From Octopus vulgaris (Eukaryota): 64,000 bases of DNA. Location of the stretch: assembly GCA_951406725.2 (NCBI GenBank), contig OX597826.1, positions 58,342,001-58,406,000 of the forward strand, in the 5' to 3' direction. Each line of letters begins with the position of its first letter. Position 1 is the stretch's first letter. Both the position numbers and the translations under genes were made by a program. Below are positions 1,716 through 52,530 of this stretch, piece after piece. The notes under the pieces were generated by a model, which was given only the letters and a program-made list of their open reading frames with translations, made no database searches and was not told where the DNA came from.

Positions 1716-4700
1716 ACAAGGGGAGGAAGGAATGTTGAACATTCCAGAGTGGGGGATTCAGAGGTGAAGGGGAGGAAGTGGAGGAAGGAATGTTGAACAT
1801 TCCTGAGAGGGGGATTTGAGAGGTGAAGGGGAGGAAGGGGAGGAGGGAATGTTGAACATTCCAGAGAGGGAGAGGAATGAATTTTGAACATTCCAGAGAG
1901 GGGGATTTGACAGGTGAAGGGGAGGAAGGGGAGGAAGGAATGTTGAACATTCCAGAGAGAGGGATTTGAGAGTTGAAGGGAGGAAGGGGAGGAAAAATCG
2001 TTGAAAATTCCAGAGAGGGGGATTTGAAAGGTGAAGGGGAGGAAGGTGAGAGGGAACGCTGAACATTCCAGAGAGGGGGATTTGAGAGGACAAGGGGAGG
2101 AAGAGGAGGAAGGAATGTTGAATATTCAAGAGAGGGGGATTTGAGAGGTGAAGGAGAGGAAGGGGAGGAAGGAATGTTGAACATTCCTGAGAGGGGATTT
2201 AGGAGGAGAAGGGGATGAAGGAAAGTTGAACATTCCTGAGAGGGGGATTTGAGAGGTGAAAGGGAGGAAAGGGAGGAAGGATCTTTGAACATTCCTGAGA
2301 GGGGGATTTGAGAGGTGAAGGGGAGGCAGGGGAGGAAGGATCGTTGAACATTCCAGAGAGAAGGAAATGTGAGAGGTGAAGGGGAGGAAGGGGTGGAAGG
2401 AACGTTGAACATTTCTGAGAGGGGGATTTGAGAGGAGAAGGGGAGGAAGCGGAGGAAGGAATGTTGAACATTCCTGAGAGGGGGATTTGCGAGGTGAAGG
2501 GGAGGAAGGGGAGGAAGGATTGTTGAACATTCCAGAGAGGTGGATTTGAGAGGTGAAGGGGAGGAAGGGGAGGAAGGAAGGTTGAACATTCCAGAGTGGG
2601 GGTTTGAGAGGCGAAGGGGAGGAAAGGGTGGAAGGAATATTGAACATTCCGGAGAGAGGGATTTGAGCAGTGAAGGGGAGGAAGGAAAGGATGGAATGTT
2701 GAACATTCCAGAGAAGGGGAGGAGGAAAGAATTTTGAACATTCCTGAGAGGAGGATTTCAGAGGTGAAGGGGAGGGAGAGGAGAAAGGAATGTTCAACAT
2801 TCCAGAGAGGGGGATTTTAGAGGAGAAGGGGAGGAAGGGGAGGAAGGATTGTTCAACATTCCAGAGAGGGGGATTTTAGAGGAGAAGGGGATGAAGGGGA
2901 GGAAGGATTGTTGAACATTCCAGAGAGGGGGATTTGAGAGGTGAAGGGGAGGAAGGGGAGGGAGGAATGTTGAACATTCCAGAGAGGGGGATTTGAGAGG
3001 TGAATGGGAGGAAGGGGAGGGAGGAATGTTGAACATTCCAGAGAGGGGGATTTGAGAGGTGAAGGGGAGGAAGGGGAGGAAGGAATGTTCAACATTCCAG
3101 AGAGGGGGATTTTAGAGGAGAAGGGGAGGAAGGGGAGGAAGGAATGTTGAACATTCCAGAGAGGGGGATTTGAGAGGTGAAGGGGAGGAAGGGGAGGGAG
3201 GAATGTTGAACATTCCTCAGAGGGGGGTTTGAGAGGTGAAGGGGAGGAAGAGGAGAAAGGAATGTTCAACATTCCACAGAGGGGGATTTTAGAGGAGAAG
3301 GGGAGGAAGGGGAGGAAGGATTGTTCAACATTCCAGAGAGGGGGATTTTACAGGAGAAGGGGATGAAGGGGAGGAAGGATTGTTGAACATTCCAGAGAGG
3401 GGGATTTGAGAGGTGAAGGGGAGTAAGGGGAGGATGGATTGTTGAACATTCCAGAGAGGGGGATTTGAGAGGTGAAGGGGAGGAAGGGGAGGGAGGAATG
3501 TTGAACATTCCAGAGAGGGGGATTTGAGAGGAGAATGGGAGGAAGGGGAAGTAGGAATGTTGAACATTCCAGAGAGGGGGATTTGAGAGGTGAAGGTGAG
3601 GGAGGGGAGGTAGGAATGTTGAACATTCTAGAGAGGGGGATTTGAGAGGAGAATGGGAGGATGTGGAGGGAGGAATGTTGAACATTCCACAGAGTGGGAT
3701 TTGAGAGGTGAAAGGGAGGAAGGGGAGAAAGGAATGTTCAACATTCCACAGAGGGGGATTTTAGAGGAGAAGGGGAGGAAGGATTGTTCAACATTCCAGA
3801 GAGGGGGATTTTAGAGGAGAAGGGGAGGAAGGGGAGGAAGGATTGTTGAACATTCCAGAGAGGGGGATTTTAGAGGAGAAGGGGAGGAAGGGGAGGGAGG
3901 AATAATGAACATTCCAGAGAGGGGGATTTGAGAGGTGAAGGGGAGGAAGGGGAGGGAGGAATGTTCAACATTCCTCCCCCCTTCCTCCCCTTCTCCTCTC
4001 AAATCCCCTCTCTGGAATGTTCAACATTCCTCCCTCCCCCTTCCTCCCCTTCACCTCTCAAATCCCCCTCTCTGGAATGTTCAACATTCCTCCCTCCCCT
4101 TCCTCCCCTTCACCTCTCAAATCCCCCTCTCTGGAATGTTGAACATTCCAGAGAGGGGGATTTGAGAGGTGAATGGGAGGAAGGGGAGGGAGGAATGTTC
4201 AACATTCCAGAGAGGGGGATTTGAGAGGAGAATGGGAGGAAGGGGAGGGAGGAATGTTGAACATTCCAGAGAGGGGGATTTGAGAGGAGAATGGGAGGAA
4301 GGGGAGGGAGGAAAGTTGAACATTCCAGAGAGGGGGATTTGAGAGGTGAAGGGGAGGGAGGAATGTTGAACATTCCAGAGAGGGGGATTTGAGAGGTGAA
4401 GGTGAGGAAGGGGAGGGAGGAATGTTGAACATTCCAGAGAGGGGGATTTGAGAGGTGAAGGGGAGGGAGGAATGTTGAACATTCCAGAGAGGGGGATTTG
4501 AGAGGTGAAGGGGAGGAAGGGGAGGGAGGAATGTTGAACATTCCAGAGAGGGGGATTTTAGAGGAGAAGGGGAGGAAGGGGAGGAAGGATTGTTGAACAT
4601 TCCAGAGAGGGGGATTTGAGAGGTGAAGGGGAGGAAGGGGAGAAAGGAATGTTCAACATTCCAGAGAGGGGGATTTCAGAGGAGAATGGGAGGAAGGGGA

Positions 4701-7700
4701 GGGAGGAATGTTGAACATTCCAGAGAGGGGGATTTGAGAGGTGAAGGGGAGGAAGGGGAGAAAGGAATGTTCAACATTCCAGAAAGGGGGATTTTAGAGG
4801 AGAAGGGGAGGAAGGGGAGGAAGGATTGTTCAATATTCCAGAGAGGGGGATTTTAGATGAGAATGGGAGGAAGGGGAGGAAAGATTGTTGAACATTCCTG
4901 ACAGGGGGATTTGAGAGGTGAAGGGAAGAAGGGGAGGGAGGAATGTTGAACATTCCAGAGAGGGAGATTTGAGATGAGAAGGGGAGGAAGAGGAGGAAGG
5001 AATGTTCAACATTCCAGAGAGGGGGATTTGAGAGGTGAAGGGTAGGAAGGGGAGAAAGGAATGTTCAACATTCCAGAGAGGGGGATTTGAGAGGAGAATG
5101 TGAGGAAGGGGAGGGAGGAATGTTGAACATTCCAGAGAGGGGGATTTGAGAGGTGAAGGGGAGGAAGGGGAGGGAGGAATGTTGAACATTCCAGAGAGGG
5201 GGATTTCAGAGGTGAAGGGGAGGAAGGGGATGGAGGAATGTTGAACATTCCAGAGAGGGGGATTTGAGAGGTGAAGGGGAGGAAGGGGAGAAAGGAATGT
5301 TCAACATTCCAGAGAGGGGGATTTGAGAGGAGAATGGGAGGAAGGGGAGGAAGGATTGTTCAACATTCCAGAGAGGGGGATTTTAGAGGAGAATGGGAGG
5401 AAGGGGAGGAAGGATTGTTGAACATTCCAGAGAGGGGGATTTTAGAGGTGAAGGGAAGAAGGGGAGGGAGGAATGTTGAACATTCCAGAGAGGGAGATTT
5501 GAGATGAGAATGGGAGGAAGGGGAGGGAGGAATGTTGAACATTCCAGAGAGGATCAAAATCCACCTCTCAGGAATGTTCAACATTCCTTCCAACGCTTCC
5601 TTCCCTTCTCCTCTCAAATCCCCCTCTCAGGAAGTTTCAACATTCCTCTCACCCCTTCCTCCCAATCTCCTCTCAAATCCCCCACTCTAGAATGTTCAAC
5701 GAACCTTCCTCCCCTTCTTCCCTTCAACTCACAAATCCCCCTCTCTAGAATGTTCAACATTCCTTCCTCCCCCTCTCTGGAATGTTCAAGATTTCATCCT
5801 CCCCTTCCTCCCCTTCACCTCTCAAATCCCTCTCTCAGGAATGTTCAACATTCCCCACTCCCCTTCCTTCCCTTCACCTCTCAAATTCCACTCTCTTCGA
5901 TGTTCAACATTGTTTCCTCCGCTTCCACCCCTTCACCTTTGAAATCCCCATCTCTGGAATGTTCAACGATCAGAACTCCCCTTCAACCCTTTCACGTCTC
6001 AAATCCCCCTCTCAGGAATGATCAACATTCCTTTCTCCCCTTCACCTCTCACATCCCCCTCACTGGAATGTTCAAAATTCATTCCTACCCTCTCTCTGGA
6101 ATGTTCAACAATCCATCCTCCTCTTTACCTCTCAAATCCCACTCTCTGGAATGTTCAACATTCCTTCCTCCCTTTCGTCACCTTCACCTATTAAATCACC
6201 CTCCCTTGAATGTTCAACGATCCTTCCTCCCATTCCTCCCTTCAACCCTGAAATCCACCTCTCTGGAATGTTTAACATTCCTTCCTCCCCTTACTCGCCT
6301 TTACCTCTCAAATCCCCCTCCCTGGAATGTTCAACATTCCTTCCTCCCCCTCTCTCGAATGTTCAACATTCTATCCTCCCCTTCCTCCTCTTCACCTCTC
6401 AAATCCCCCTCTGAGGAAAGTTCATACTTCCCCCCTTCCTACCCTTCACCTCTCAAATCCCCCTCTCTGGGATGTTCAACATTCCTTCCTCCCCTTCAAC
6501 CCTTCACCTTTGAAATCCCCCTCTCTGGAATGTTCAACGTTCCTTCCTCCCCTTCCTCCAATTCACCTCTCAAATCCCCCCTCTCAGGAATGTTCAACAT
6601 TCCTTCCTCCACTTCTCCCCTTCTACTCTCAAATACCCCTCTCAGGAATGTTCAACATTCCTCCCTCCCTTCCTCCCCTTCACCTCAGTAATCCCCCTCT
6701 CTGGAATGTTCAACAATCCTTCCTCCCCTTCATCGCCTTCACATCTCAAATCCCCCTCTCAGGAATGTTCAACATTCCTTCCATCTCTTCTCTCAAATCT
6801 CCCTCTCAGGAATGTTCGACGATCCCCTTCCTCTTTTCAACTCTCAAATCCCCCTCTCTGGAATGTTCAACGATCCTTCCTCCCCTTCCTCCCCTTCACC
6901 TCTTAAATTCCCGTCTCAGGAATTTTCAATATTCCGTCCTCCCCTTCCTCCGCTTCTCCCCTCAAATCCTCCTCTCAGGAATGTTCAACATTCCATCCTC
7001 CCCTTCCTCCGCTTCTCCCCTCAAATCCCCCTCTCAGGAATGTTCAACATTCCTCCCTCCCCTTCCTCCCATTCTCCTCTCAAATCCCCCTCCCTGGAAT
7101 GTTCAACGATCCTTCCTACCCTTGTCCCCTTCAACTCACAAATCCCCCTCTCTAGAATGTTCAATGATCCTACCTCCCCTTCCTCCCCTTCTACTCTCAA
7201 ATCTCCCTCTCTGAAATGTTCAACATTACTTCCTTCTCTTCCTCCCCTTCACCTCTCAATTCCCCCTCTCTGGAATGTTCAACATTCCTTCCTCCCCCCT
7301 CTCTGGAATGTTTAACATTCCATCCTCCCCTTCCTCCCCTTCACCTCACATATACCTCTCTCTGGAATGTTCAGCATTCCATCCTCCACTTCCTGACCTT
7401 TTCTCTCTAATCCCCTTCTCTGGAATGTTTAACATTACTTCCTCCCCTTCCTCCCCTTCACCTCTCAAATTCCCCTCTCTGCAATGTTGAACATTCCTTC
7501 CTCGCCTTCTCTGGAATGTTCAACGTTCCATCCACCCCTTCCTCCCCTTCACCTCTCAAATCCCCCTCTCTTTGATGTTCAACATTCCTTCCTCCACTTC
7601 CTCCCCTTCACCTCTAAAATCCCCTTCTCTGGAATGTTGAACATTCCTTTTTCCCCTTCCTCACCTTCACCTTTGAAATCACCCTCTCTGGAATGTTCAA

Positions 7701-9683
7701 CGATCCTTACTCCACTTCATCCCCTTCACCTCAAAATCCCCCTCTCTGGAATGTTGAACATTCCTTTCTCCCCTTCCTCCCCTTCACCTCTCAAATCCCC
7801 CTCTCTGGAATGTTCAACATTACTTCCCACCCCCTCTCTGGAATGTTCAGCATTCCATGCTCCCCATCCTCCCCTTCACGTATCAAATCCCCCTCTCAGA
7901 AATGTTCAACATTCCATCCTCCCCTTCTTCCCCTTCACCTCTCAAATCCCCCTCTCTGAATTGTTTAACATTCCTTCCTCCCCTTCCTCCCCTTCACCAC
8001 TCAAAACCCCTCTCTGGAATGTTCAACATTCCTTCCTCCCCTTCACCTCTCAAAACCCATCTCTGGAATGTTCAACATTCCTTCCTCCCCTTCCTCCCCC
8101 TCACCTCTCAAATTCCCCTTTCTGGAATGTTTAACATTCCTTCTTCCCACCTCACTGGAATGTTCAACATTCCATCCTCCTCTTCCTCCCCTTCACCTCT
8201 CAAATTCCCCTCTCATGGAATGTTCAACATTCCTTCCTACCCTTCCTCACCTCCTCCTCTCAAATCCCCCTCTCAGGAATGTTGAACATTCCTCCCTCCC
8301 CTTCCTCTACTTCACCTCTCAAATCCCCCACTCTGGAATGTTCAACGAATCTTCCTCCCCTTCTTCCCTTCAACTCTCAAATCCCCCTCTCTGTAATGTT
8401 CAACGATCCTTCCTCCCCTTCCTTCCTTTCACCTCTCAAATCCCCCTCTCTGGAATATTCAACATTCCTTCCTCCCCTTCCTCCCCATCACCTCTCAAAT
8501 CCCCCTCTCTGGAATGTTCAACATTCCTTCCTCCCCCTCTCTGGAATGTTCAACATTCCTTCCTCCCCTTCACCTCTCAAATCCCCCTCTCAGGAATGTT
8601 CAACATTCCCCACTCCCCTTCCTTCCCTTCACCTCTCAAATTCCCCTCTCTGCGATGTTCAACATTCTTTCCTCCCCTTCCACCCCTTCACCTTTGAAAT
8701 CCCCCTCTCTGGAATGTTCAACGATCAGAACTCCCCTTCAACCCCTTCACGTCTCAAATCCCCCTTTCAGGAATGTTCAACATTCCTTCCTCCCCTTCCT
8801 CCCCTTCTCCTCTCAAATCACCCTCTCAGGAATGTTCAACAATCCAACCCATTCCTACCCTTCTCCTCACAAATCCCCCTCTCTGGAATGTTAAACATTC
8901 TATCCTCCCCTTCAGCTCTCACATCCCCCTCACTGGAATGTTCAAAATTCATTCTTACCCCCTCTCTAGAATTTTCAACATTCACCCCAACACTTCCTCC
9001 CCTTCACCTATCACATCCACCTCACTTGAATGTTCAAAATTCATTCCTACCCCACTCTCTGGAATGTTCAGCATTCCCCCCTCCCCTTCCTCCCTTCAAC
9101 CCTGAAATCAACCTCTCTGGAATGTTTAACATTCCTTCCTCCCCTTACTCGCCTTTACCTCTAAAATCCCCTTCCAGAGAGGGGGATTTGAAAGGTGAAG
9201 GGGAGGAAGGAATGTTGAACATTCCAGAGAGGGGGGTTATAGAAGTGAAGTGAGGAAGGGCAGGGAGGAATGTTGAAAATTCCTGAGAGGGGGATTTGAA
9301 AGGTGAAGGGCTGGAAGGGGAGGAAAGAATGTTGAAAATTCCAGAGAGGGGGATTTGAGAGGTGAAGGGGAGGAAGGGGAGGACGGATCGTTGAACATTC
9401 CAGAGAGGGGGATTTGAGAAGTGAAGGGGAGGAATGGGAGGATGTTAAATTTTACAGTGAGGGGGATTTGAGAGGTGAAGAGAGGAAGGAATGTTGAACA
9501 TTCCATAGAGATGGGCTTGAGAGGTGAAGGGGAGGAAGAGGAGGTAGGATCGTTGAATATTCCAGAGAGGGGGATTTCAGAGTTGAATGAGAGGAAGGAT
9601 AGGAAGGAATGTTGAACATTCCAGAGAGGGGTATTTGAGTGTTGAAGGTGAGGAAGGGTAGGAAGGATCGTCGAACATTCCAG
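1716..9683. repeat. 59-bp satellite with a 17-bp palindrome and a purine-rich arm; four orientation switches
   Basis: Consensus GGAATGTT(G/C)AACATTCC-AGAGAGGGGGATTTGAGAGGTGAAGGGGAGGAAGGGGAGGAA. G-rich on + at 1716-3965, 4141-5552 and 9172-9683; C-rich at 3966-4140 and 5553-9171. Shortened ~30 and ~50 bp variants occur. Confidence 0.95.
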
Positions 9684-9905
9684 ACATCCCTTTCATTCCT
9701 GACATTCCAGACATTCCAGACATTCCCGACATTCCAGTCATTCCTGACATTGCAGACATTCCTGATATTCCTGTCATTCCATTCATTCCGGACATTCCTG
9801 AAATTCCAGACATCCCCGACATCCCAGACATCTCTGACAATCCAGACATTTCTGGAATGTCTGGATTGTGAGGAGTGTCTGGAATATCAGGAATGTCTGG
9901 AATGA
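9676..9905. repeat. 9-bp repeat, block 4, inverting at ~9851
   Basis: gacattcc units to 9850, then ggaatgtc units; hairpin TCCAGACATT-tctgg-AATGTCTGGA at the switch. Confidence 0.9.
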
Positions 9906-23011: not shown

Positions 23012-23366
23012 ACTGGAACAAAAACGCAATAGAGGACAAAACATTCGGACAGATAGACGATACAAAGGCAGACAGGAAAAACAAAAAAGGACCGGTCATT
23101 CGTGGCCTTCTTTCTTCAGTCAAGTTACCAGATGTCCTTACAGTTTCGGGTAGTTACACTTGAGACTCTTCAATCTGGTTGCCCCCCCCCCAAGTCTAAG
23201 CTAAGAGCATTAGATTTTTTGTAAGAAAGGGAGCGAATGTGTAAGGCAACAAAGATAAAAAACGGAAACATTGTACACAATCAGTTGGGCTGCCGTGTAA
23301 AAATTGAAAACCTTAAAGCAGGAACTTAGGAGATAGACATAAGAGGTGTGGCGGTCGGCAGTCAAG

Positions 23367-26152: not shown

Positions 26153-26222
<70 letters not shown>

Positions 26223-26254
26223 TATATACATACATATATGTACATAACTACATA

Positions 26255-26930
26255 TATACGAATATATACATGCATATATGTGTACAGGACATAAAAAAAA
26301 CGTTGAACACAATTAGAAACGAAAACATAAAAGCCCAAACGTAGAAACGAACATTTTTTCGAACAACGAAAAAAACCAAACAGAGAAACGCGACACGCAA
26401 CATAAAGAATATTCCCCTTCATCAGTTGTTCCTGTTTCGTCTACTCTGCGTTTTGAAGGAAAGGACAATACGCGACTTCGTTGAAACAGCCCTTCCCGCA
26501 AAGCAAATTAAATAAAATTTAGGACTTTTTGCGGAGGGCAAAAGTGGCAGTAAGAACAGGGCAGTGAGAACAACACAGTAAAAATAAACGGTGAGGGCTG
26601 TTAAGCCAGGACGATGGAAAAATTATTATGATTGCTAGGAAAACGAGCTTATGAGAGGAGATAGTATAAGCACGTCTTGTCTCTAGAAAGGTAATGGGCA
26701 GAAAGATAGATTCTCTTTCGTCACGTGTCAGCAACGAGAGAGTCGAGGAGGAGGAGTGAGAGAGAGGGAACGGTGACGAGGAGAGGAGAAGAATAGGGAA
26801 GGGTGGGAGAGAAAACCAGAAAGGATGAAGAACAAGAGAGGGAGAGAGGTAGTAAAGGTAGAAGAGTGTTCATCTTAATTATTAAGAAAAAACTTACTTG
26901 CAAAAGGATGCGTTGCGTTCGATCACATAA
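26255..26930 (-). mobile_element. non-coding Penelope-like-derived repeat (second family)
   Basis: Same layout as 35170-36048 (pyrimidine tract, CACGTG, T-rich region, hammerhead boxes, end in (TA)n); its end is repeated at 27165-27338. Confidence 0.6.
26412..26489 (-). ncRNA. candidate permuted hammerhead ribozyme (G12->A in this copy)
   Basis: CTGTTTC..CGCGTA|TTGTCC-tttccttc-aAAA-CGCa..GAAACAG-GAACAA-CTGATGA-aggggaa; sibling at 27319-27331 has GGACAA-CTGATGA. Confidence 0.55.
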
Positions 26931-27111
26931 TAATATAAATAATATATAAACATATGCATATATACATACATATATGTACATATCTTATATACAATATATA
27001 TACTGAACTTTACAGAAGTTCCTGCCGGTAATCGGCTATATTTACATACCGAATTCTACCAGTAAATAATCGGGGTTTTTTTAAAAGCCTTTTATAGAAA
27101 TTATTTACTCT

Positions 27112-27164
<53 letters not shown>

Positions 27165-27167
<3 letters not shown>

Positions 27168-27338
27168 GTATATATACATGCATATATGGGTACAGGACAT
27201 CAAAAAAATTTTGAACACAATGAGAAACTAACACAGAAAAACAAAAACGTGGAAACGAACTTTGTTTTCGAAAACGAAAATAGAGAAACGAGACATGCAA
27301 CATAAAGAATATTCCCCTTCATCAGTTGTCCCTATTTC
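27165..27338 (-). mobile_element. truncated copy of the 26255-26930 family
   Basis: Roughly 80% similar by eye to 26255-26438, including cataaagaatattccccttcatcagttgt. Confidence 0.8.
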
Positions 27339-27519
27339 ATGTATGTATGTATGTATGTATGTATGTATGTATGTATGTATGTATGCATGCATGCATGTAT
27401 GTATGTATGTATATATATTTATATAAATATATATATACAAACATACATATATATACATGCATATATGTACATACATACATATACATAATTATACATATAT
27501 ATGATCAGATACAATTGTT

Positions 27520-32788: not shown

Positions 32789-33172
32789 GTGTCTTCATTC
32801 TTTTGAATTTATTAGTGTAAATTTGTGTAGATATGAAACGTTATATAGAAGTAGTAAGTATATGATTTAACTTATTAAACAGAGTTCAACAAGTTTGTTC
32901 ATACTTACGTAAATGGAGGAGAATAAATGTTAATATGGATGATTATTTTTTTTTATTCATGTAGCTATACAATTGTTTCATAGAAAATGACACGAAATTC
33001 ATATTTAAGACTTTGAGTTGTCATAAAGTACTCGTCGGTAGCTGAAAAAACTAAAAGGACGTTAGAAATGACATAGGTATGGTGTTATTAATCATTTTGT
33101 AATGCGTTACTGTTCTTGGAGTCATGTCTATTTAAACAAGACTGATATATAGAACTCGGGTGCTGATATATA

Positions 33173-34528
33173 CAGGGTGCTTCAAAGAAATTTGATGTAA
33201 TTTCGCGATCTAACAACTTTGCCAGTTCTCGTTCAAAGGACTTCAAATTTTAACAGAATGTGTAGAAACAGGTTAAAATTTTATGTTTAATGTTTGATAT
33301 GTTTATCTTTCCAGGTAGAGAAATGGCAGTCATTCGAAGAGAAAAGGCGTTTTGTGTATTGAAGCATGATGGAACACAGTCAAACAACTGTGCAGCGTGC
33401 ATTTGTGAGAGAGTTCTCTAAAAGATCACCAACGGCAATGCAGGTTCGGACATGACATGAAAGAAAAAAAAATTCAAAGAGGAAGGCAAAAGGATCTGGA
33501 CAGCCACTAACATCGGAAGAAACGGTCGAGCGGGTTCGACAAAAGCTCTTGCGAAGCCCCAAGAAGTCCATAAGAAGAACAAGTCTGGAAACCCAGATTC
33601 CTCCAACGATAGTTGGCGCGTCCTGAGGAAACGCTTGCTAATGAAACCCTACAAGCTGCAGCTCGTTCAGGCCATAAAAGCAGATGACAAGCGAAAGCGC
33701 AAACAATTCTGTGTTGAAATGCAAGAGAAACTTGAAGAAAACGGGTTCAACGAATGTCTTGTTTTCAGTGATGAGGCCACATTTCATACGAATGGCAAAG
33801 TCAATAAGCATAATTTTCGCATTTGGGGCAAAGAGAATCCCCGTGCCACAGTTGAGCATGAGAGGAACTCACCAAAATTGAATGTGTTCTGCGCCGTCTT
33901 TAAGAAGCATCTTCATGGCCCGTTTTTCTTTGAGGGAAATGTGATCAGCGTTGTTTATCTGCAAATACTTCAGAACTGGCTAATGGATGAATTCATTGCA
34001 AATGAACATGAAGACTTCATTTTTCAACAAGATGGGGCTCCACCTCACTAGAATCTTACTGTGCGGGCTTATCTCAATGACAATCTGCGAGGGGAATGGA
34101 TCGGGTGTGATGGTGATGAAGACAATATGCTATTGAAATGGCTGCCATGTTCACCTGAGCTGACACCTTGCGATTTTTTTTTCTGGGTGTATATTAGAGG
34201 CCTGGTCTATGTCCCCCTTTTCCTGCAAACCTAGAGGAATTCGAGCAGAGAATCACTTCTGCACTGGAGACTGTTACCCAAGACATGCTGTAGCGTGTTT
34301 TAGAGGAGCTGAACTACTGACTTGACGCGCGCCGTCTCTCAGGCGGTGCGCTATTGAACGTTTGTGAAATCGTTCATGGAATCCATATACCTTTGAATTT
34401 CTCATTCAAAATAAAAGGAATACATCTTATGTTGCTCAACATTAAGCCTATTTAGTTTCATTTGCCTTGAGTATGTAGTTTCTGTGATATTTACATCCCA
34501 ATGATATCAAATTTTTTGAAACACCCTG
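33173..34528 (+). mobile_element. full-length decayed rosa/DD41D-clade Tc1/mariner element, ~29-bp TIRs, TA TSD
   Basis: TA|CAGGGTGCTTCAAAGAAATTTGAT...ATCAAATTTTTTGAAACACCCTG|TA; transposase ~33323-34367 with VFSDEATFH, FQQDGAPPH and WLPCSPELTPCDFFFW; several stops and frameshifts. Confidence 0.93.
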
Positions 34529-34583
<55 letters not shown>

Positions 34584-35169: not shown

Positions 35170-36048
35170 TGAGGGCTTCGAATGTCCCGTCCTGTGGTTC
35201 TTGTGTCGTCTCTGTGGCGTTTCACGTTCTTGTCCATGTCTGTAATTATTTTTACTGTTTACCTATATAATCGGCGGCTACGTATCCACAATTGTCCTTA
35301 TACGATAAGTATATTTTTTTCTCAAGCATTGATACGACTCTTAATCTTTCTTTCTCTCTCTCTCCCTCCCTTATTCCCCCTCCTTTCTTTCCCTCTCCAT
35401 CCGTTTCCCCCCCCCTTCTACGTTTCTCTATCTCTCTCACCTCCAGCCCCCTCGATCTGTCTCTTTCTTCTCCTCCCTCGTCCACCTTCTCTCTCTTTTC
35501 ATCTGTCCCTTTCTCTTGTCTTTTGTTCTCACGTGACCGCTGACCGCTGTTGAGCGCTCTTTTCGTTCCAGCAGCCGTTGAAGCAACACGTACTTGTTCG
35601 TCTCCCTGTGGCCATTAGGCACAACTTCATAAGCCAGCCCCATGCTCAATTCGTCCTGTCGAAAGACCCTTGTCCTACGTCCTGGTTTTGTTTTGTTGTT
35701 TATTTTTTATACTTTATTTTTACCGTTATTGTTTTTACGTGTTTGTATTCTTATTGTTGTCACGTATTCGGTATTTTTGTTCGTGTACTTCGTTCGTTTT
35801 CCGTCCTCGTGTTGTATACATTCGAAGCTTTCTTCCAGGGGATCTAATGCACTTGGCTTAGATTTCCCGTGGCGGGCTGCCCATATCGGAGCAATCTCAA
35901 GATTAATCAGCCGAAATTGCTAAGATGATCTGGTTCTTGACTGATGACTGAGGGCTTCGAATGTCCCGTCCTGTGGTTCTTGTGTCGTCTCTGTGGCGTT
36001 TCACGTTCTTGTCCATGTCTGTAATTATTTTTACTGTTTACCTATATA
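35170..36048 (+). mobile_element. non-autonomous Penelope-like/retrozyme-like element with identical 100-bp direct terminal repeats
   Basis: 35170-35269 is identical to 35949-36048 (period 779 bp); possible GIY-YIG C-terminal relic YNRRLRI/QLSLYDKYIFFSSIDTTLN at 35266-35345; hammerhead boxes at 35881-35956. Confidence 0.7.
35881..35956 (+). ncRNA. candidate permuted hammerhead ribozyme (best-preserved copy)
   Basis: CCAtATC-gg-AGCAA-UC|UCAAGA-uuaaucagcc-GAAA-UUGCU-aagau-GAUCUGG-u-UCUUGA-CUGAUGA; stems I and III perfect. Confidence 0.62.
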
Positions 36049-37852: not shown

Positions 37853-38305
37853 AAGAGAAAGAAATAGATAGAGGGAGAAAACTGTTCGAGTGCATTTATA
37901 TAAATGCTTGTGTCCGTATGTATGCACACTTACGTATATACGATAGATATTTGTACGTAGATAACACATATATGTGGACCCATACATTTATGGGTAGACA
38001 GAATCTGATACAGAGGCAATTAATTGTGGTTGAAATTTCGAAATTCAAATAATAAAAAAGGAAAAAGCACACGAAGAACAATACATAATTATTCCCAAAT
38101 ATGTTAATTCATTATGCTTAGACGTTTATCGCCTGCAAACTTATGCACATTATATCGCCCCTAAACTAGCTAACACCCCGTTATATCGTCGACCATTTTT
38201 TTCCCCTGTATTTCTTCATGAAATTTTTTGATGATGGGTTTTATATTTTGTTGCTTTTTCCTGGTCTCGAAATACCGTTACGTAATAGGGATGGTCTGTA
38301 GCAAT

Positions 38306-38307
38306 AG

Positions 38308-38360
<53 letters not shown>

Positions 38361-38531
38361 GTGATGGTGATGACGACGGTAAGGATTATGGCAGTGATGA
38401 TGACGATGGTGATGATGGTGACAATGGCGATGATTATGATGATGATAAATGATGATGATGGTGATGACGACGGTAAGGATTAGACGGTGATGATGATGAT
38501 GGTGATGATGGTGACAATGGCGATGATGATT

Positions 38532-38590
<59 letters not shown>

Positions 38591-38601
38591 TGTGGTTGTG
38601 G

Positions 38602-38635
<34 letters not shown>

Positions 38636-38797
38636 ATCGACGACAGTGAGGATTATGGCAGTGATGATGACGATGGTGATGATGGTGACAATGGCGATGA
38701 TTATGATGATGATGATGATGATGATGGTGATGACGACGGTAAGGATTAGACGGTGATGATGATGATGGTGATGATGGTGACAATGGCGATGATGATT

Positions 38798-38850
<53 letters not shown>

Positions 38851-39066
38851 TGTGGTTGTGGTGATGATGATGATGATGATGAAGATGATGATGATGATAA
38901 CGACGACAGTGAGGATTATGGCAGTGATGATGACGATGGTGATGATGGTGACAATGGCGATGATTATGATGATGATGATGATGATGATGGTGATGACGAC
39001 GGTAAGGATTAGACGGTGATGATGATGATGGTGATGATGGTGACAATGGCGATGATGATTATGATA

Positions 39067-39110
<44 letters not shown>

Positions 39111-39121
39111 TGTGGTTGTGG

Positions 39122-39158
<37 letters not shown>

Positions 39159-39400
39159 AACGACGACAGTGAGGATTATGGCAGTGATGATGACGATGGT
39201 GATGATGGTGACAATGGCGATGATTATGATGATGATGATGATGATGATGACGATGACGACGATGACGACGATGACGATGATATTGTTGCTGATGATGATG
39301 ATAACGCGGAGGAGAAGGACAATGCTGCTGCTGCTGATGATAATGATGTTGCTTATGATAATCATAATTATGATGATAATGATGATGAAGATTATGATGA
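38306..39400. repeat. (GAT)n-derived higher-order repeat, ~263-266 bp unit
   Basis: gacgacggtaaggattagacggtg recurs at ~38466, 38732 and 38995; variant version at 46204-47330. Confidence 0.85.
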
Positions 39401-39597
39401 TGATGAAGATGATGATGGTGGCGGTGGTGGTGCTGGTGGTGTTGCTGTTGCTGCTGTTGTTGCTGTTGCTGTTGCTGTTGCTGGTGGCGACGATATGGTT
39501 GCTGACGATGATGAAGGTGATTACGAAAGGGATGATGATGATGATGGTGAGAAGGAGGAAGAGTAGGAAGGAAGACGTCAATAATGGTGTTGGCAAA

Positions 39598-39639
<42 letters not shown>

Positions 39640-39912
39640 AGCAATAAAATAATTATAATTATTGTTACTATTGGCATAATAACAACGATGAGACTCTCAT
39701 GGTTAATGATTAAGGCAAGTACAAAAACAAAAAAAAAAAATAATAGACAAAAAAGGAAAACAAAAAAAACAAACAATTATAGAAAGAGTGGGAACAATAA
39801 TACAGCAATTGTGACAGCAACAATAACAAAAAACACCACCATCATCAACATCATCATCACAACCGTTACCGCTTCCATTACCAACGACTACAACAACAAC
39901 AACAACAACAAC

Positions 39913-39951
<39 letters not shown>

Positions 39952-40115
39952 TAATAATAATTAATAATAATAATAATGATAATAATAATAATGAATAATA
40001 ATACTAATACTAATAATAATAATAATAATAATAATTAATAATAATTAATAATAATAATAATGCTAATAATAATAATGATAATACTACTACTACTACTACT
40101 ACTACTAATAATAAT

Positions 40116-40175
<60 letters not shown>

Positions 40176-40184
40176 TGATGATGG

Positions 40185-40215
<31 letters not shown>

Positions 40216-40258
40216 GGTGGTGGTGGTGGTGGTGGTGATGATGATAATAATAATCATG

Positions 40259-40510
40259 ATTCTTTCAAATTTTGGTACAAGGCCTGCAAGTGTGAGCGTG
40301 GGGAGAGGGTGGTTAGTCGATTTACATCGAATCAAGAACTTTATTGATACTTTATTTTATAAGCCCCGGAAGCAGGAAAGGCGAAGCTGACCTCTGCGAG
40401 ATTTGAACTCGAGATGTAAAGTGCCGGAAGAAATACTGCAAGGCAAATTTTTTTGTTGTTTTTTTTTTTGTTTTTTGTTCAGCTCTTTCAACGATTCAGC
40501 CGCTCCAGTA
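40259..40510 (-). mobile_element. old SINE family B copy (duplicate at 48261-48510)
   Basis: ttagtcgatttacatcga...ggaaaggcgaagctgacctc...atttgaactc. Confidence 0.7.
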
Positions 40511-40632
40511 CCCTTGTTCTCAATCAAATAATAAGCACCACAACAACAACCTCAACAACAGTAATAATAACACCAATAGCAATAATAGTAATAACGAGAA
40601 CACCACCATCAATAATAATAATTATTATTATT

Positions 40633-40756
<124 letters not shown>

Positions 40757-41036
40757 AAGAAGAAGAAGAAGAAGAAGAAGAAGAAGAAGAAGAAGAAGAA
40801 GAAGAAGAAGAAGAAGAAGAAGAAGAAGAAGAAGAAGAAGAAGAAGAAGAAGAAATGCAATGATTTCTATTATTGGCCATGATAGTTGAAGACAGTGAAT
40901 ACCAGAAGACAAAATGCAAACACAAAATCGATTTCCTTGAAGTTACGCAGATCATTAAGAAACAAATGTTATAACAAAAAAAAACAAACAAAATCAGGAA
41001 GAGGAGGAAAGCTTCTACATCAGGTGAATAATAATA

Positions 41037-41105
<69 letters not shown>

Positions 41106-41239
41106 TCAAAAAGGAAATAGAAGCAGCGCTAGTGTAAAAACCATCATCGACCACATATACTCAACGTATGTATCGTAGCCCACCGGAAATACACAAGATA
41201 TATACGTTAAGTATATGTGGTCGATGATGCTTGATGGTA

Positions 41240-41324
<85 letters not shown>

Positions 41325-41606
41325 TAATAATAATAATAAGGTTAATATGGGCTTAAGCTAGGGAATAAGATTGTTTGACAGAGAATAAGGAAGGAACATT
41401 TTACAAAATACCGACAGACGTTTAACTGAAAGACACTATCCGTCAACGTCTTCCATGAATTAAACATTAATATTTCGTAAGTAACAATGAAAGAGGGATG
41501 AAAATGTCATTGCATTAATGTCTTTGTGTAATTTTATTACCCTTTTGCGTCGCCATCTTACGAAATAGTAACAAACAACGAATATATATATATATATATA
41601 TATGTG

Positions 41607-41688
<82 letters not shown>

Positions 41689-42088
41689 CTTATCCAGGAT
41701 TAAAAGGGGAATACTTATTTGTATAAAGCTCTGCATCATAAGAAATGTTATCATCTGATGTAATTAATGATGGCAATTAAATAAAAGACTTGATTTTATG
41801 ATGAAAATTTGCGAAGTTAAACCGAAAATCCATAAATGCACACAGATGAAATACGCTTCTATATTACATTTATATTCCGCATCTACAGACTGTCACCAAA
41901 TATTAAAATTCTGCTAAATTTCCGTACAAAATTTCGAGAGAAAACTACTCCAACTTGAAAGAAAATTTCAATCCCATCAGGTTATGCAAATGTTTTACGG
42001 TGGCACCCGTATAACTTCGTTTCAAATAGCTTGAAATATCTCTAAGGGCAGACGTGTGTCGTTCTAAATTTCGAGCCTATGGAGATAT

Positions 42089-42238
42089 AGGAGTGGCTGT
42101 GTGGTAAGTAGCTTGCTTACCAATCACATGGTACCGGGTTCAGTCCCACTGCGTGGCACCTATGTCTTCTACTATAGCCTCGGGCCGACCAAAGCCTTGT
42201 GAGTGGATTTGGTAGACGGAAACAGAAAGAAGCCTGTC

Positions 42239-42285
<47 letters not shown>

Positions 42286-42513
42286 CATGTGTGCATATGT
42301 TTGTGTGTCTGTGTTTGTCCCCACCCAACATTACTTGACAACCGATGCTGGTGTGTTTACGTCCCCATAACTTAGCGGTTCGGCAAAAGAGACTGATAGA
42401 ATAAGTACTAGGCTTACATAGAATAAGTCCTGGGGTCGAGTTGCTCGACTAAAGGCGGTGCTCTAGCATGGCCACAGTCACATGACTGAAACAAGTAAAA
42501 GAGTAAAAGAGAG
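42089..42513 (+). mobile_element. SINE family A (duplicate at 50166-50583)
   Basis: Family A match. Confidence 0.92.
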
Positions 42514-42930
42514 TATACATGTATCAACTTCTAAAGTGTATTCATAGAGAGAAACAAAGAAAATGAGTTTAGGTGAGCATAAAAGAACGAGGAAGAAAAA
42601 GCTTATCACATAAGCCACAGAAATTAAAAGATTCTTTGTAGAAGCCAAGAACATAGTGAAAAGAAAAGAGAAAAGGATTTAGATAAGGACAAAACAACGG
42701 AAAACATTTTTTTTTGAAAATTACAAAAGACAGAATTAAAGCAGAATTCTAAAATATTCCACAAAAATATATAAAGGTACTCTTCTCTATGTCCATTATT
42801 TGCGTGATTTGTGAGACGAATTGGATACAAGGAATAACTAATAACCATATTAAATTTAATGGACTGATTTGAAGAAATAGATAGTCTAATAAGTTAAGCT
42901 ATAGAAGTGCAACTATTAATTACAAACAGA

Positions 42931-43304
42931 AACAAGAGCACTCAGCGAGCGCAAACCTCCGCCAAGGTAACACCGATGTCCTCTCAACGGTTAACCGTAG
43001 ATGATATTTAAAATGAGAATATCTGAAATAAACTTGACTGTTCTCACAAACAAGACCACTAAAAATGAACCCGACCACCATAAAAAATTAAATAAAAAAC
43101 CGGAGAAATAATCCAGAATCCTTTTCCAGTACCGGATTGATCCAAAAATCTAATCAGTTCATGCCAGTCACAATGCCAAACATCCGTGCAAGTTTCATCC
43201 GAATCCATACCGGGGTTCTTGAGATATCTTGTCTACAGACAACCACAGAAACAAACAAACACAACTAAAAGCAATACCACCGCCTTCGCTAAGGCGGAGG
43301 TAAT
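42931..43304. mobile_element. Helentron/HINE-like non-autonomous element (duplicate at 51000-51373)
   Basis: Subterminal inverted repeats ACCTCCGCC/GGCGGAGGT, terminal hairpin ccgccttcgctaaggcgg, internal (AAAC)n, AA/TT-type ends. Confidence 0.7.
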
Positions 43305-43519
43305 AAAACAACAAGAAAATAAGTTCTTACACATACAAACATACCAAATATAAACAAGAATGCGCGAACTAATCTCCTCATCTGATACAGAGGAAAGATT
43401 AAACTAGGTGTGTGTTCAAAAATATAGGAGCATAAGGGTACCTGTTGTCATCAGTAAGTACAAAGATTATGACCAAAAAACATTGCCGAACGAATTAATG
43501 AGTTATATATATATCTACA

Positions 43520-43906
43520 GGGACAAGCGTGGTTGCGTGGTACGAAGCTTGCTTCTCTACCACACGGTTCCGAGTTCAGTCTCACTGTGTGGTACCTTGG
43601 GCAATTGCTTTCTACTATAGCCTTGGACCAACCAAAGCCTTGTGAGAGGATTTAGTGAATGGAAACTGAAAGAAGCCCGTGTTAGTATGTATATATATTT
43701 TATGTGTGTATCGTTGTATCTGTATTTGTCTCTCCACCATCACTTGACAACCGATATTTATGTCACCATAACTGAGCAGTCCAGCAAAAGAGACATATAG
43801 TATAAGTACTAGGTTTACAAAGAATAAGTCCTGGGGGGGTCGATTTCTTTGACTAAAACCCTTTAAGGGGGTGATCCAGCATGGCCGCAGTCAAATGACT
43901 GAAATA
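43520..43906 (+). mobile_element. older SINE family A copy (duplicate at 51589-51975)
   Basis: Diverged head; tail ccagcatggccgcagtcaaatgactgaaa. Confidence 0.85.
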
Positions 43907-44138
43907 GTGTTCTGCTAATGAGGTAGGAAGTATTGAGACCATTAGTGGAATTTTAAAGGATGACAACTTCTGTTTGCATTTTGGGAACTGAATGTTACCT
44001 GCACTGCTGCGACAATGAGTAATGAGTGATGAGTACACACGCAATACACACACATACACATACACACACGCACACACAGATACACACACGAATGCACACA
44101 CACACATACACACGAATATGCATGTATTTATATATAAA

Positions 44139-44202
44139 CTAGCAGTATCGCCCGGCGTTGCTCGGGTTTGTAAGGGAAATAATTATAAAGCATTTTTAGA
44201 TA
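44139..44202 (-). mobile_element. Helitron 3' end running into the gap
   Basis: Minus strand ...CCCGAGCAACGCCGGG-cgatactg-CTAG|T: subterminal hairpin plus CTAG; empty A|T site at 52212|52213 in copy 2. Confidence 0.85.
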
Positions 44203-44302
44203 NNNNNNNNNNNNNNNNNNNNNNNNNNNNNNNNNNNNNNNNNNNNNNNNNNNNNNNNNNNNNNNNNNNNNNNNNNNNNNNNNNNNNNNNNNNNNNNNNN
44301 NN
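44203..44302. other. assembly gap (100 N)
   Basis: Run of N. Confidence 1.
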
Positions 44303-52212
<7,910 letters not shown>

Positions 52213-52360
52213 TACATATATAGCACATATGTATATATATGTACATGTGTATGTATGTATACATACATATATTTACCTATATATATACATATATATACAT
52301 ATGTATATATATATGTACATGTTTGTATGTATACATCCACATATATTTACCTATATATAT

Positions 52361-52398
<38 letters not shown>

Positions 52399-52530
52399 GC
52401 ATACGTATATATATATATGTACATGTATATATGTATACACATACATATATTTACCTATATATTCATGTATACACATATGTATATAAATGTACATGTATAT
52501 ATGTCTATATGTGTACACACACATATATTT

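Follow-up and report, generated by a model that had tools for sequence, protein, structure and literature searches.

A decayed, predicted hammerhead ribozyme with permuted strand order on a Penelope-type repeat of Octopus vulgaris

In a 64,000-nt stretch of Octopus vulgaris DNA (GenBank assembly GCA_951406725.2, contig OX597826.1, positions 58,342,001 to 58,406,000; hereafter the window), an earlier note had marked nucleotides 26412-26489 of the minus strand as a permuted hammerhead, one of three such families in the window. The locus raises the question of whether a segment with a damaged core is indeed the remnant of a ribozyme and, if so, how its strands would fit together. The repeat family of the copy under study is called here the 26412-26489 family, the other two families of the window are called B and C, and a related lineage that matches a published octopus Naiad end is called the Naiad lineage. 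As judged from the sequences compared below, the segment is rather probably a decayed hammerhead in which the strands run in the order cleavage site, GAAA, CUGANGA (S-G-C), with a core predicted to be open between A9 and G10.1, and the repeat that carries it is non-coding, of Penelope type and likely moved by Naiad proteins.

All of the elements that the earlier note had listed were found at their places on the minus strand (Table 1), and their S-G-C order is that of the type-SGC hammerheads of Eckert et al. (2023). The bounds given for the motif were too short, as it reaches ~50 nt further upstream, to 26538. In the window copy the hammerhead core (CUGANGA, GAAA and UH) is incomplete. Block G carries two mutations, G12 to A at 26454 and a stem III G to A at 26447, and one pair in stem I and one in the outer helix are broken. 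The loss of G12 together with these two broken pairs suggests that the window copy is inactive, and it is likely a dead remnant of the predicted ribozyme. No Rfam hammerhead appeared among the 150 matches listed of 540 in the window, and neither the window copy nor an intact family B copy matched the Rfam hammerhead families at E values up to 10, which is to be expected from the non-circular block order. Plain folding of 26400-26500, which is blind to pseudoknots, gave a z of -0.44.

Table 1. Positions of the motif, its host element and the related motifs in the window. Strand pairings and the cut are predictions.
Feature	Position	Strand	Remark
Upstream strand IIa' (CCCU), predicted partner of the strand directly after CUGAUGA	26535..26538	minus	3-6/6 pairs in six subfamilies of the lineage
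Hairpin H, between IIa' and the stem II 5' strand	26496..26534	minus	closing stem 7/7 in 5/6 subfamilies, with double changes
Strand X (GAAGG), predicted stem II 5' strand; G10.1 = 26495	26491..26495	minus	5/5 Watson-Crick pairs, 6/6 subfamilies
Outer helix 5' strand (stem III extension)	26482..26489	minus	
CUGUUUC	26489-26483	minus	read from sequence
Block S: stem III strand, U16.1-A17, stem I strand; predicted cut 26469/26468	26463..26474	minus	
CGCG	26474-26471	minus	read from sequence
UA	26470-26469	minus	read from sequence
UUGUCC	26468-26463	minus	read from sequence
Block G: stem II 3' strand CCUUC, GAAA box, stem III strand	26447..26459	minus	
AAAA, at the place of the GAAA box	26454-26451	minus	read from sequence
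CGCA	26450-26447	minus	read from sequence
Outer helix 3' strand, adjoining stem I	26432..26439	minus	
GAAACAG	26438-26432	minus	read from sequence
Stem I strand (G to A at 26430), CUGAUGA box, strand IIa (AGGG)	26415..26431	minus	
GAACAA	26431-26426	minus	read from sequence
CUGAUGA box	26425-26419	minus	read from sequence
Host element, a Penelope-type unit (744 nt, non-coding) in partial tandem with a (TA)n end	26210..27340 (ends approximate)	minus	coverage by 91 loci
Foreign DNA inside the host element, ~150 nt	about 27105-26990 (ends approximate)		
Sibling motif, 5' part of the same insertion, beginning ~29 nt past the cut	27319..27340	minus	
Family B motif, intact core, unit 777 nt; predicted cut after 35896	35811..35969	plus	
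Family C motif, decayed copy, related to family B	23092..23246	minus	

The 39 best other matches of the window copy in the genome are 87-89% identical to it, and a 21-nt tag of the family has 801 exact genomic copies. Across 60 loci of the family the bases lost from the window copy are restored in the majority: position 26454 is G in 41 of the 55 covering copies, which brings back G12, position 26447 is G in 45 of 58, which brings back the last base of stem III, and position 26430 is G in 58 of 60, which brings back GGACAA. Both parts of the consensus that had been predicted, C-GAAA-CGCG and GGACAA, are thus present in the family majority, and with core and stems restored there the reading as a permuted hammerhead with stems I and III holds, and a chance match can be set aside. 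A check of the family copies for a consensus AAAA, or for unpaired stems I and III, came out against neither the GAAA box nor the pairings. The loss of G12 had been put down to CpG decay; among 100 matches listed of 182, the C-G12 dinucleotide is CG in 63, CA in 14 and TG in 23 (hand count), and such counts fit decay of the CpG type.

Core nucleotides are all kept across the lineages. CUGANGA, GAAA and UH are intact in the family majority and in 14 representative sequences, the latter having been picked for intact boxes. Position 17, scored in 40 copies of the 26412-26489 family, is A in 20, C in 18, U in two and G in none; at position 7 the copies have A or U. Source subfamilies differ from one another at N7, H17 and the linker; as far as the alignments tell, the source elements vary at positions where a hammerhead tolerates change.

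Stem II had been drawn as GGGGAA paired with UUCCUU. This six-pair helix needs U26460, which is replaced by G (22) or A (18) in 40 of 44 family copies, and it was rejected. Another partner emerges from the 14 representatives, which span four lineages (locus L270 was dropped for its mutated cleavage site, and L253, a hit with no clear upstream strand, was left out). The five bases before GAAA find a partner, at 96% Watson-Crick pairing, in a strand that precedes the cleavage site by 19-27 nt, and the first of these pairs is G-C in 14 of 14; the strand directly after CUGANGA reaches 24-29% Watson-Crick as stem II partner when zero to two inserted bases are allowed. Hairpin H (-8.0 kcal/mol in the window copy) lies immediately 5' of the upstream strand X, and IIa' lies immediately 5' of H. 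The registers of X, H and IIa are the best-scoring ones within short ranges, and the H or IIa register is misplaced in some representatives (A, B5 and N).

Exchanging strands between lineages lowered the Watson-Crick fraction of every helix, from 0.97 to 0.39 for stem I, from 0.88 to 0.20 for stem III, from 0.96 to 0.37 for stem II formed with the upstream strand, from 0.86 to 0.38 for hairpin H and from 0.69 to 0.35 for IIa (14 representatives in each case). Stems I, II and III therefore flank the core and covary, stem II doing so only with the upstream strand. In seven B/C sequences, 14 of the 44 pairs of the model show double changes, a count that is inflated by relatedness and that was reached by none of 500 shuffles. 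Upstream stem II is 97% paired in these seven sequences, with three double-change pairs, and pairing drops to 22-53% in slid controls on the same alignment. Moreover, subfamily A5 (25 copies) has three stem X/II pairs changed on both sides and keeps 5/5 Watson-Crick pairs.

The strand before GAAA thus has its partner upstream, and the strand after CUGANGA has one still further upstream, beyond a hairpin. This predicts a core that is open between A9 and G10.1 and has two helices inserted there. In the proposed fold stem III would close a loop that holds one stem I strand and one stem II strand, as the covariation suggests. The outer helix would then reverse the direction of the chain and thereby let the CUGANGA strand complete stem I; the partner for stem II would come from the upstream strand. 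IIa and hairpin H would be inserted between A9 and G10.1, probably with one stacked on the other in the manner of a four-way junction. What the data show directly is the sequence with its block order, helices that covary, the copy numbers, the build of the element and the step in 5' ends described below; the three-dimensional fold, catalysis and the Naiad partner are things that we infer.

A simpler arrangement, which we consider unlikely, is that the 26412-26489 family folds as a plain type-SGC hammerhead, in which stem II joins the strand after CUGAUGA, with one A inserted, to CCUUC and the upstream helices are accessory or inhibitory. Such a register of four pairs, two to three of them Watson-Crick, is present after a 1-nt insertion in 6/6 subfamilies of the lineage, its duplex energy is -3.9 kcal/mol as against -4.6 kcal/mol for upstream strand X, and the accessible part of Eckert et al. 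(2023, PMC10085705) reports SGC ribozymes that cut. A weaker plain-SGC stem II is therefore possible in this family. The same register fails elsewhere, as the adjacent strand gives at most one contiguous pair in 8/8 B/C representatives, so that a stem II strand within 1-2 nt of CUGAnGA is weak in the 26412-26489 lineage and absent in B/C. Even a 5-nt insertion leaves the B/C helix 75% paired, a value matched by 27 of 500 shuffles, and this variant was rejected as a general solution. Within the family under study, the five upstream pairs survive the three double changes of A5, and the downstream strand pairs better with IIa' (-7.2 kcal/mol). The opened core with an upstream stem II is thus the preferred reading.

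A point against the model is the outer helix, which is only 74% paired in a MAFFT alignment of the seven B/C sequences. Between stem III and the outer helix, families B and C and the Naiad lineage carry what we take to be a kink-turn consensus, with a 3-nt bulge and tandem GA pairs. In the 26412-26489 family this place is held by another purine-rich internal loop, readable as loop E or as a reversed kink-turn; a standard kink-turn is absent, and outer helix and stem I follow each other with no linker. Subfamily A5 fits the reversed kink-turn consensus. The strict loop E reading is weakened, as most A5 copies have ACUA and not AGUA. The three window families had been described as sharing one architecture, and this is true of the block order, common to all three, but not of the overall layout.

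These differences bear on a second alternative, to which we give slightly less weight than to the plain type-SGC fold: the fold may be real but cut only in trans, between two RNA copies, or with the protein of the element, the outer helix being unable to reach stem I within one molecule. The lack of a linker and of a standard kink-turn in the 26412-26489 family would agree with this, whereas the kink-turn consensus would supply the bend in cis in B, C and the Naiad lineage, and the reversed consensus of A5 argues in the same direction. An anole Penelope hammerhead is described in the accessible text of PMC11167929 as cutting only with protein present, and dimer cleavage by Penelope hammerheads is named in the title of a reference.

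Genomic 5' ends were compared with the predicted cut. Thirty copies of the 26412-26489 family were picked by a 3' tag 50 nt downstream; 15 of them start at +1 to +23, two of these forming the arms of a single inverted insertion, whereas the ranges -1 to -29 and +24 to +50 contain no start at all. The p value of the step is 5e-6. In a second set of 30 copies, one of which is shared with the first, five start on the cut (within TA ambiguity), seven at +7 to +9 and two at about -15. In the B lineage, among 100 copies listed of 4,673, six have their junction with (TA)n precisely on the cut, and no more than one starts at -1 to -11. A hand count of 36 distinct TA-flanked loci, a sample that overlaps with this B-lineage listing, placed the start of 34 at +1 to +11; no locus starts at -1 to -8, one is ambiguous and one unrelated. 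About half of the copies run across the predicted cut.

A template ending at the scissile bond would explain the step in 5' ends, and the copies that cross the site suggest that uncut or re-ligated templates are used as well. The step is indirect evidence, read from genomic DNA, for cleavage in vivo at the predicted bond, and it supports the placement of the cut between 26469 and 26468 that had been proposed. The family B stretch is present in assembled contigs of 20 RNA runs, and no ends were visible in four runs that were compared, a result that counts neither for nor against cleavage. That the motif is a non-catalytic structure, its 5'-end pile marking a transcription start or a reverse-transcriptase stall, is very improbable: most truncated copies begin several nt past the cut rather than on it, and the junctions favour A/T microhomology with the (TA)n target, but in lineages of different sequence the pile begins, on its upstream side, at the predicted scissile bond, while core nucleotides are kept throughout and G is never found at position 17.

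The unit length of the host element, 744 nt, was taken from the spacing of units in locus L252. Its longest ATG frame is 101 aa, and a Naiad-type ORF with an N-terminal GIY-YIG and a C-terminal reverse transcriptase (RT) is absent. A spacing of 3,974 nt between two copies, considered as a full-length element, is a segmental duplication. The truncated sibling described in the earlier note does read GGACAA-CUGAUGA, at 27331-27319; it starts at 27340, however, and belongs to the same partial-tandem insertion, and so is no independent copy. It lies 900 nt away because of the foreign DNA within the insertion. Units of this kind, non-coding, of 744, 777 and 796 nt and with one hammerhead motif each, form tandem arrays of up to three units. 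In each of the three window families the 3' end is fixed in (TA)n and the 5' ends vary, and partial tandems as well as inverted copies occur; these are marks of Penelope-like elements in the part of Craig et al. (2021, PMC8557442) available.

A more direct link to Naiad comes from a 17-mer of the published octopus Naiad end, which has 523 exact genomic copies and none in the control. In 8 of 30 loci, the query locus included, the Naiad-lineage motif lies 1.0-1.5 kb behind a broken RT fragment, which we take to be of Penelope type from its sequence motifs; a Pfam match for this fragment was not found. Naiad 3' ends published with Craig et al. were inspected by eye over 240-600 nt in 15 of 54 consensus sequences, with names deduced from the order of the metadata table. 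Four of the 15 show the S-G-C order (two octopus, one bobtail squid and one box jellyfish), three a clean CSG order (two nematodes and one spider), and eight nothing of a permuted motif within the stretch displayed. Strand IIa, the hairpin and the upstream strand are visible in the jellyfish and squid ends, imperfectly in the squid. Naiad retrotransposons had been taken to lack a ribozyme, and this motif is likely the missing one. None of the loci retrieved held an autonomous element of the 26412-26489 family; the unit is tied to Naiad by architecture only, and its mobilisation by Naiad proteins is what we regard as likely.

Some features of these ends stand apart. The CSG permutation seen in the nematode and spider ends (PMC8557442, File S5) has, according to the sources available in part, so far been known from two metagenomic sequences. 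The oyster consensus end in the accessible portion of the same data set has no CUGANGA box and carries a compact GC-rich motif, which may be another structured RNA. Locus L262 has an apparent canonical Penelope 3' end at 2287-3177 (plus strand), with a C-terminal GIY-YIG-like frame, that is unrelated to the permuted motif in that locus.

A life cycle can be proposed from these observations. Read-through transcripts of tandem units would cut themselves once per unit, and reverse transcription would be initiated ~250 nt downstream of the cut, always at the same internal site. Where the template has been cut, it would run off at that point and yield short copies, and on an uncut or re-ligated (circular) template it would pass the site and yield partial tandems. 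By analogy with animal retrozymes, a monomer or a circle may be the intermediate. The fullest form of the proposal, for which we see the case as evenly balanced, is that four separate strands come together to form the core of an active hammerhead, with two stacked helices in place of the A9-G10.1 link; this would be the missing Naiad ribozyme in cephalopods and a box jellyfish, with nematode and spider Naiads using CSG, and it would cut in vivo and feed thousands of retrozyme-like units of 750-850 nt, possibly via circles.

The earlier note had expected a very abundant motif, and genome-wide counts agree. A generic pattern in one spacing variant, beyond whose reach the 26412-26489 family lies, has 11,994 genomic matches as against 178 for the reversed pattern. 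Searches with profiles for three groups of lineages found 10 hits in a sample of 80 regularly spaced 10-kb stretches (800 kb of the 2.8-Gb genome) and four in the 64-kb window, which is thus ~5x richer than the genome sample. Rough extrapolation from the profile hits points to some tens of thousands of copies. Family B is young, its 39 best other matches all being ~100% identical; the very young element at 35171-36047 (plus strand), with its intact core, is the best natural candidate for a cleavage test. Hits of GCS and CSG descriptors in the genome sample (three in 800 kb) depend on T-runs and were taken to be chance matches. Locus L253 has an S-G-C hit at 5666-5820 (plus strand) with stems I and III, the outer helix and IIa, lacking a clear hairpin or upstream stem II strand; it may be another family or a deleted copy.

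The motif shares with type SGC (HRIMA-1 and variants) the S-G-C order, the core nucleotides and a short linker between stems I and II. In the accessible text of Eckert et al. (2023, PMC10085705), stem II is assumed to lie within 1-2 nt after CUGAnGA, whereas here the partner would be an upstream strand accompanied by two extra helices, and stem III is extended by the outer helix. Their examples came from metatranscriptomes, and the octopus motif sits in an animal retroelement; as far as that text goes, the genomes of known organisms yielded no RNA of this kind save for one weak bacterial GCS candidate. Core insertions described in the available part of Perreault et al. are of 1-2 nt. Because block C appears broken, the motif is set apart from membership of type SGC, though it would work in an SGC-like manner; it is best described as a candidate new variant of the hammerhead ribozyme.

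With the Naiad clade (Craig et al., 2021, PMC8557442) the families have in common (TA)n targets, partial tandems and inverted, 5'-truncated copies, and the published octopus end carries the permuted motif; the 26412-26489 family differs in being a non-coding 744-nt unit. The accessible part of that paper reports no canonical hammerhead in Naiads and flags eight Naiad families as 'HHR_half_core'. Animal non-LTR retrozymes (Cervera and de la Pena, 2020, PMC7229834; Li et al., bioRxiv 10.64898/2026.07.22.740005) likewise consist of non-coding tandem units with one hammerhead each. In the available portions of these sources an origin in Penelope-like elements is proposed and units measure 51-972 bp, a range that includes 744 nt. 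They differ in having type I hammerheads and demonstrated circular RNAs, whereas the order here is S-G-C and the topology is non-circular. A point against the proposal comes from the anole Penelope element, which according to the accessible text of PMC11167929 could insert in vitro without cleavage, and for which RNA ends were not seen at the cut. No description of the present layout, or of permuted hammerheads in Naiads, was found in the literature covered, which lay mostly outside subscription journals.

If the model is right, non-circularly permuted hammerheads, so far a matter of environmental sequence and one weak bacterial candidate, would also reside in animal genomes, with a copy number above ten thousand. 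Published searches assume that stem II directly follows CUGAnGA, and this would no longer hold; the apparent lack of hammerheads in Naiad retrotransposons would be explained. The 5'-end step at the predicted bond makes an in vivo role of Penelope hammerheads testable.

Other features of the window were recorded in passing. A satellite array of 59-bp repeats extends over ~8 kb at 1718-9684, with large internal inversions, and is the source of spurious Rfam microRNA matches. At 33171-34530 there is a decayed DNA transposon, presumably Tc1/mariner-like, with a transposase-like frame (33461-34051, plus strand) between terminal inverted repeats. A tandem duplication of ~8 kb, seen as paired motif hits 7.9-8.1 kb apart, covers ~38300-44500 and 46300-52500.
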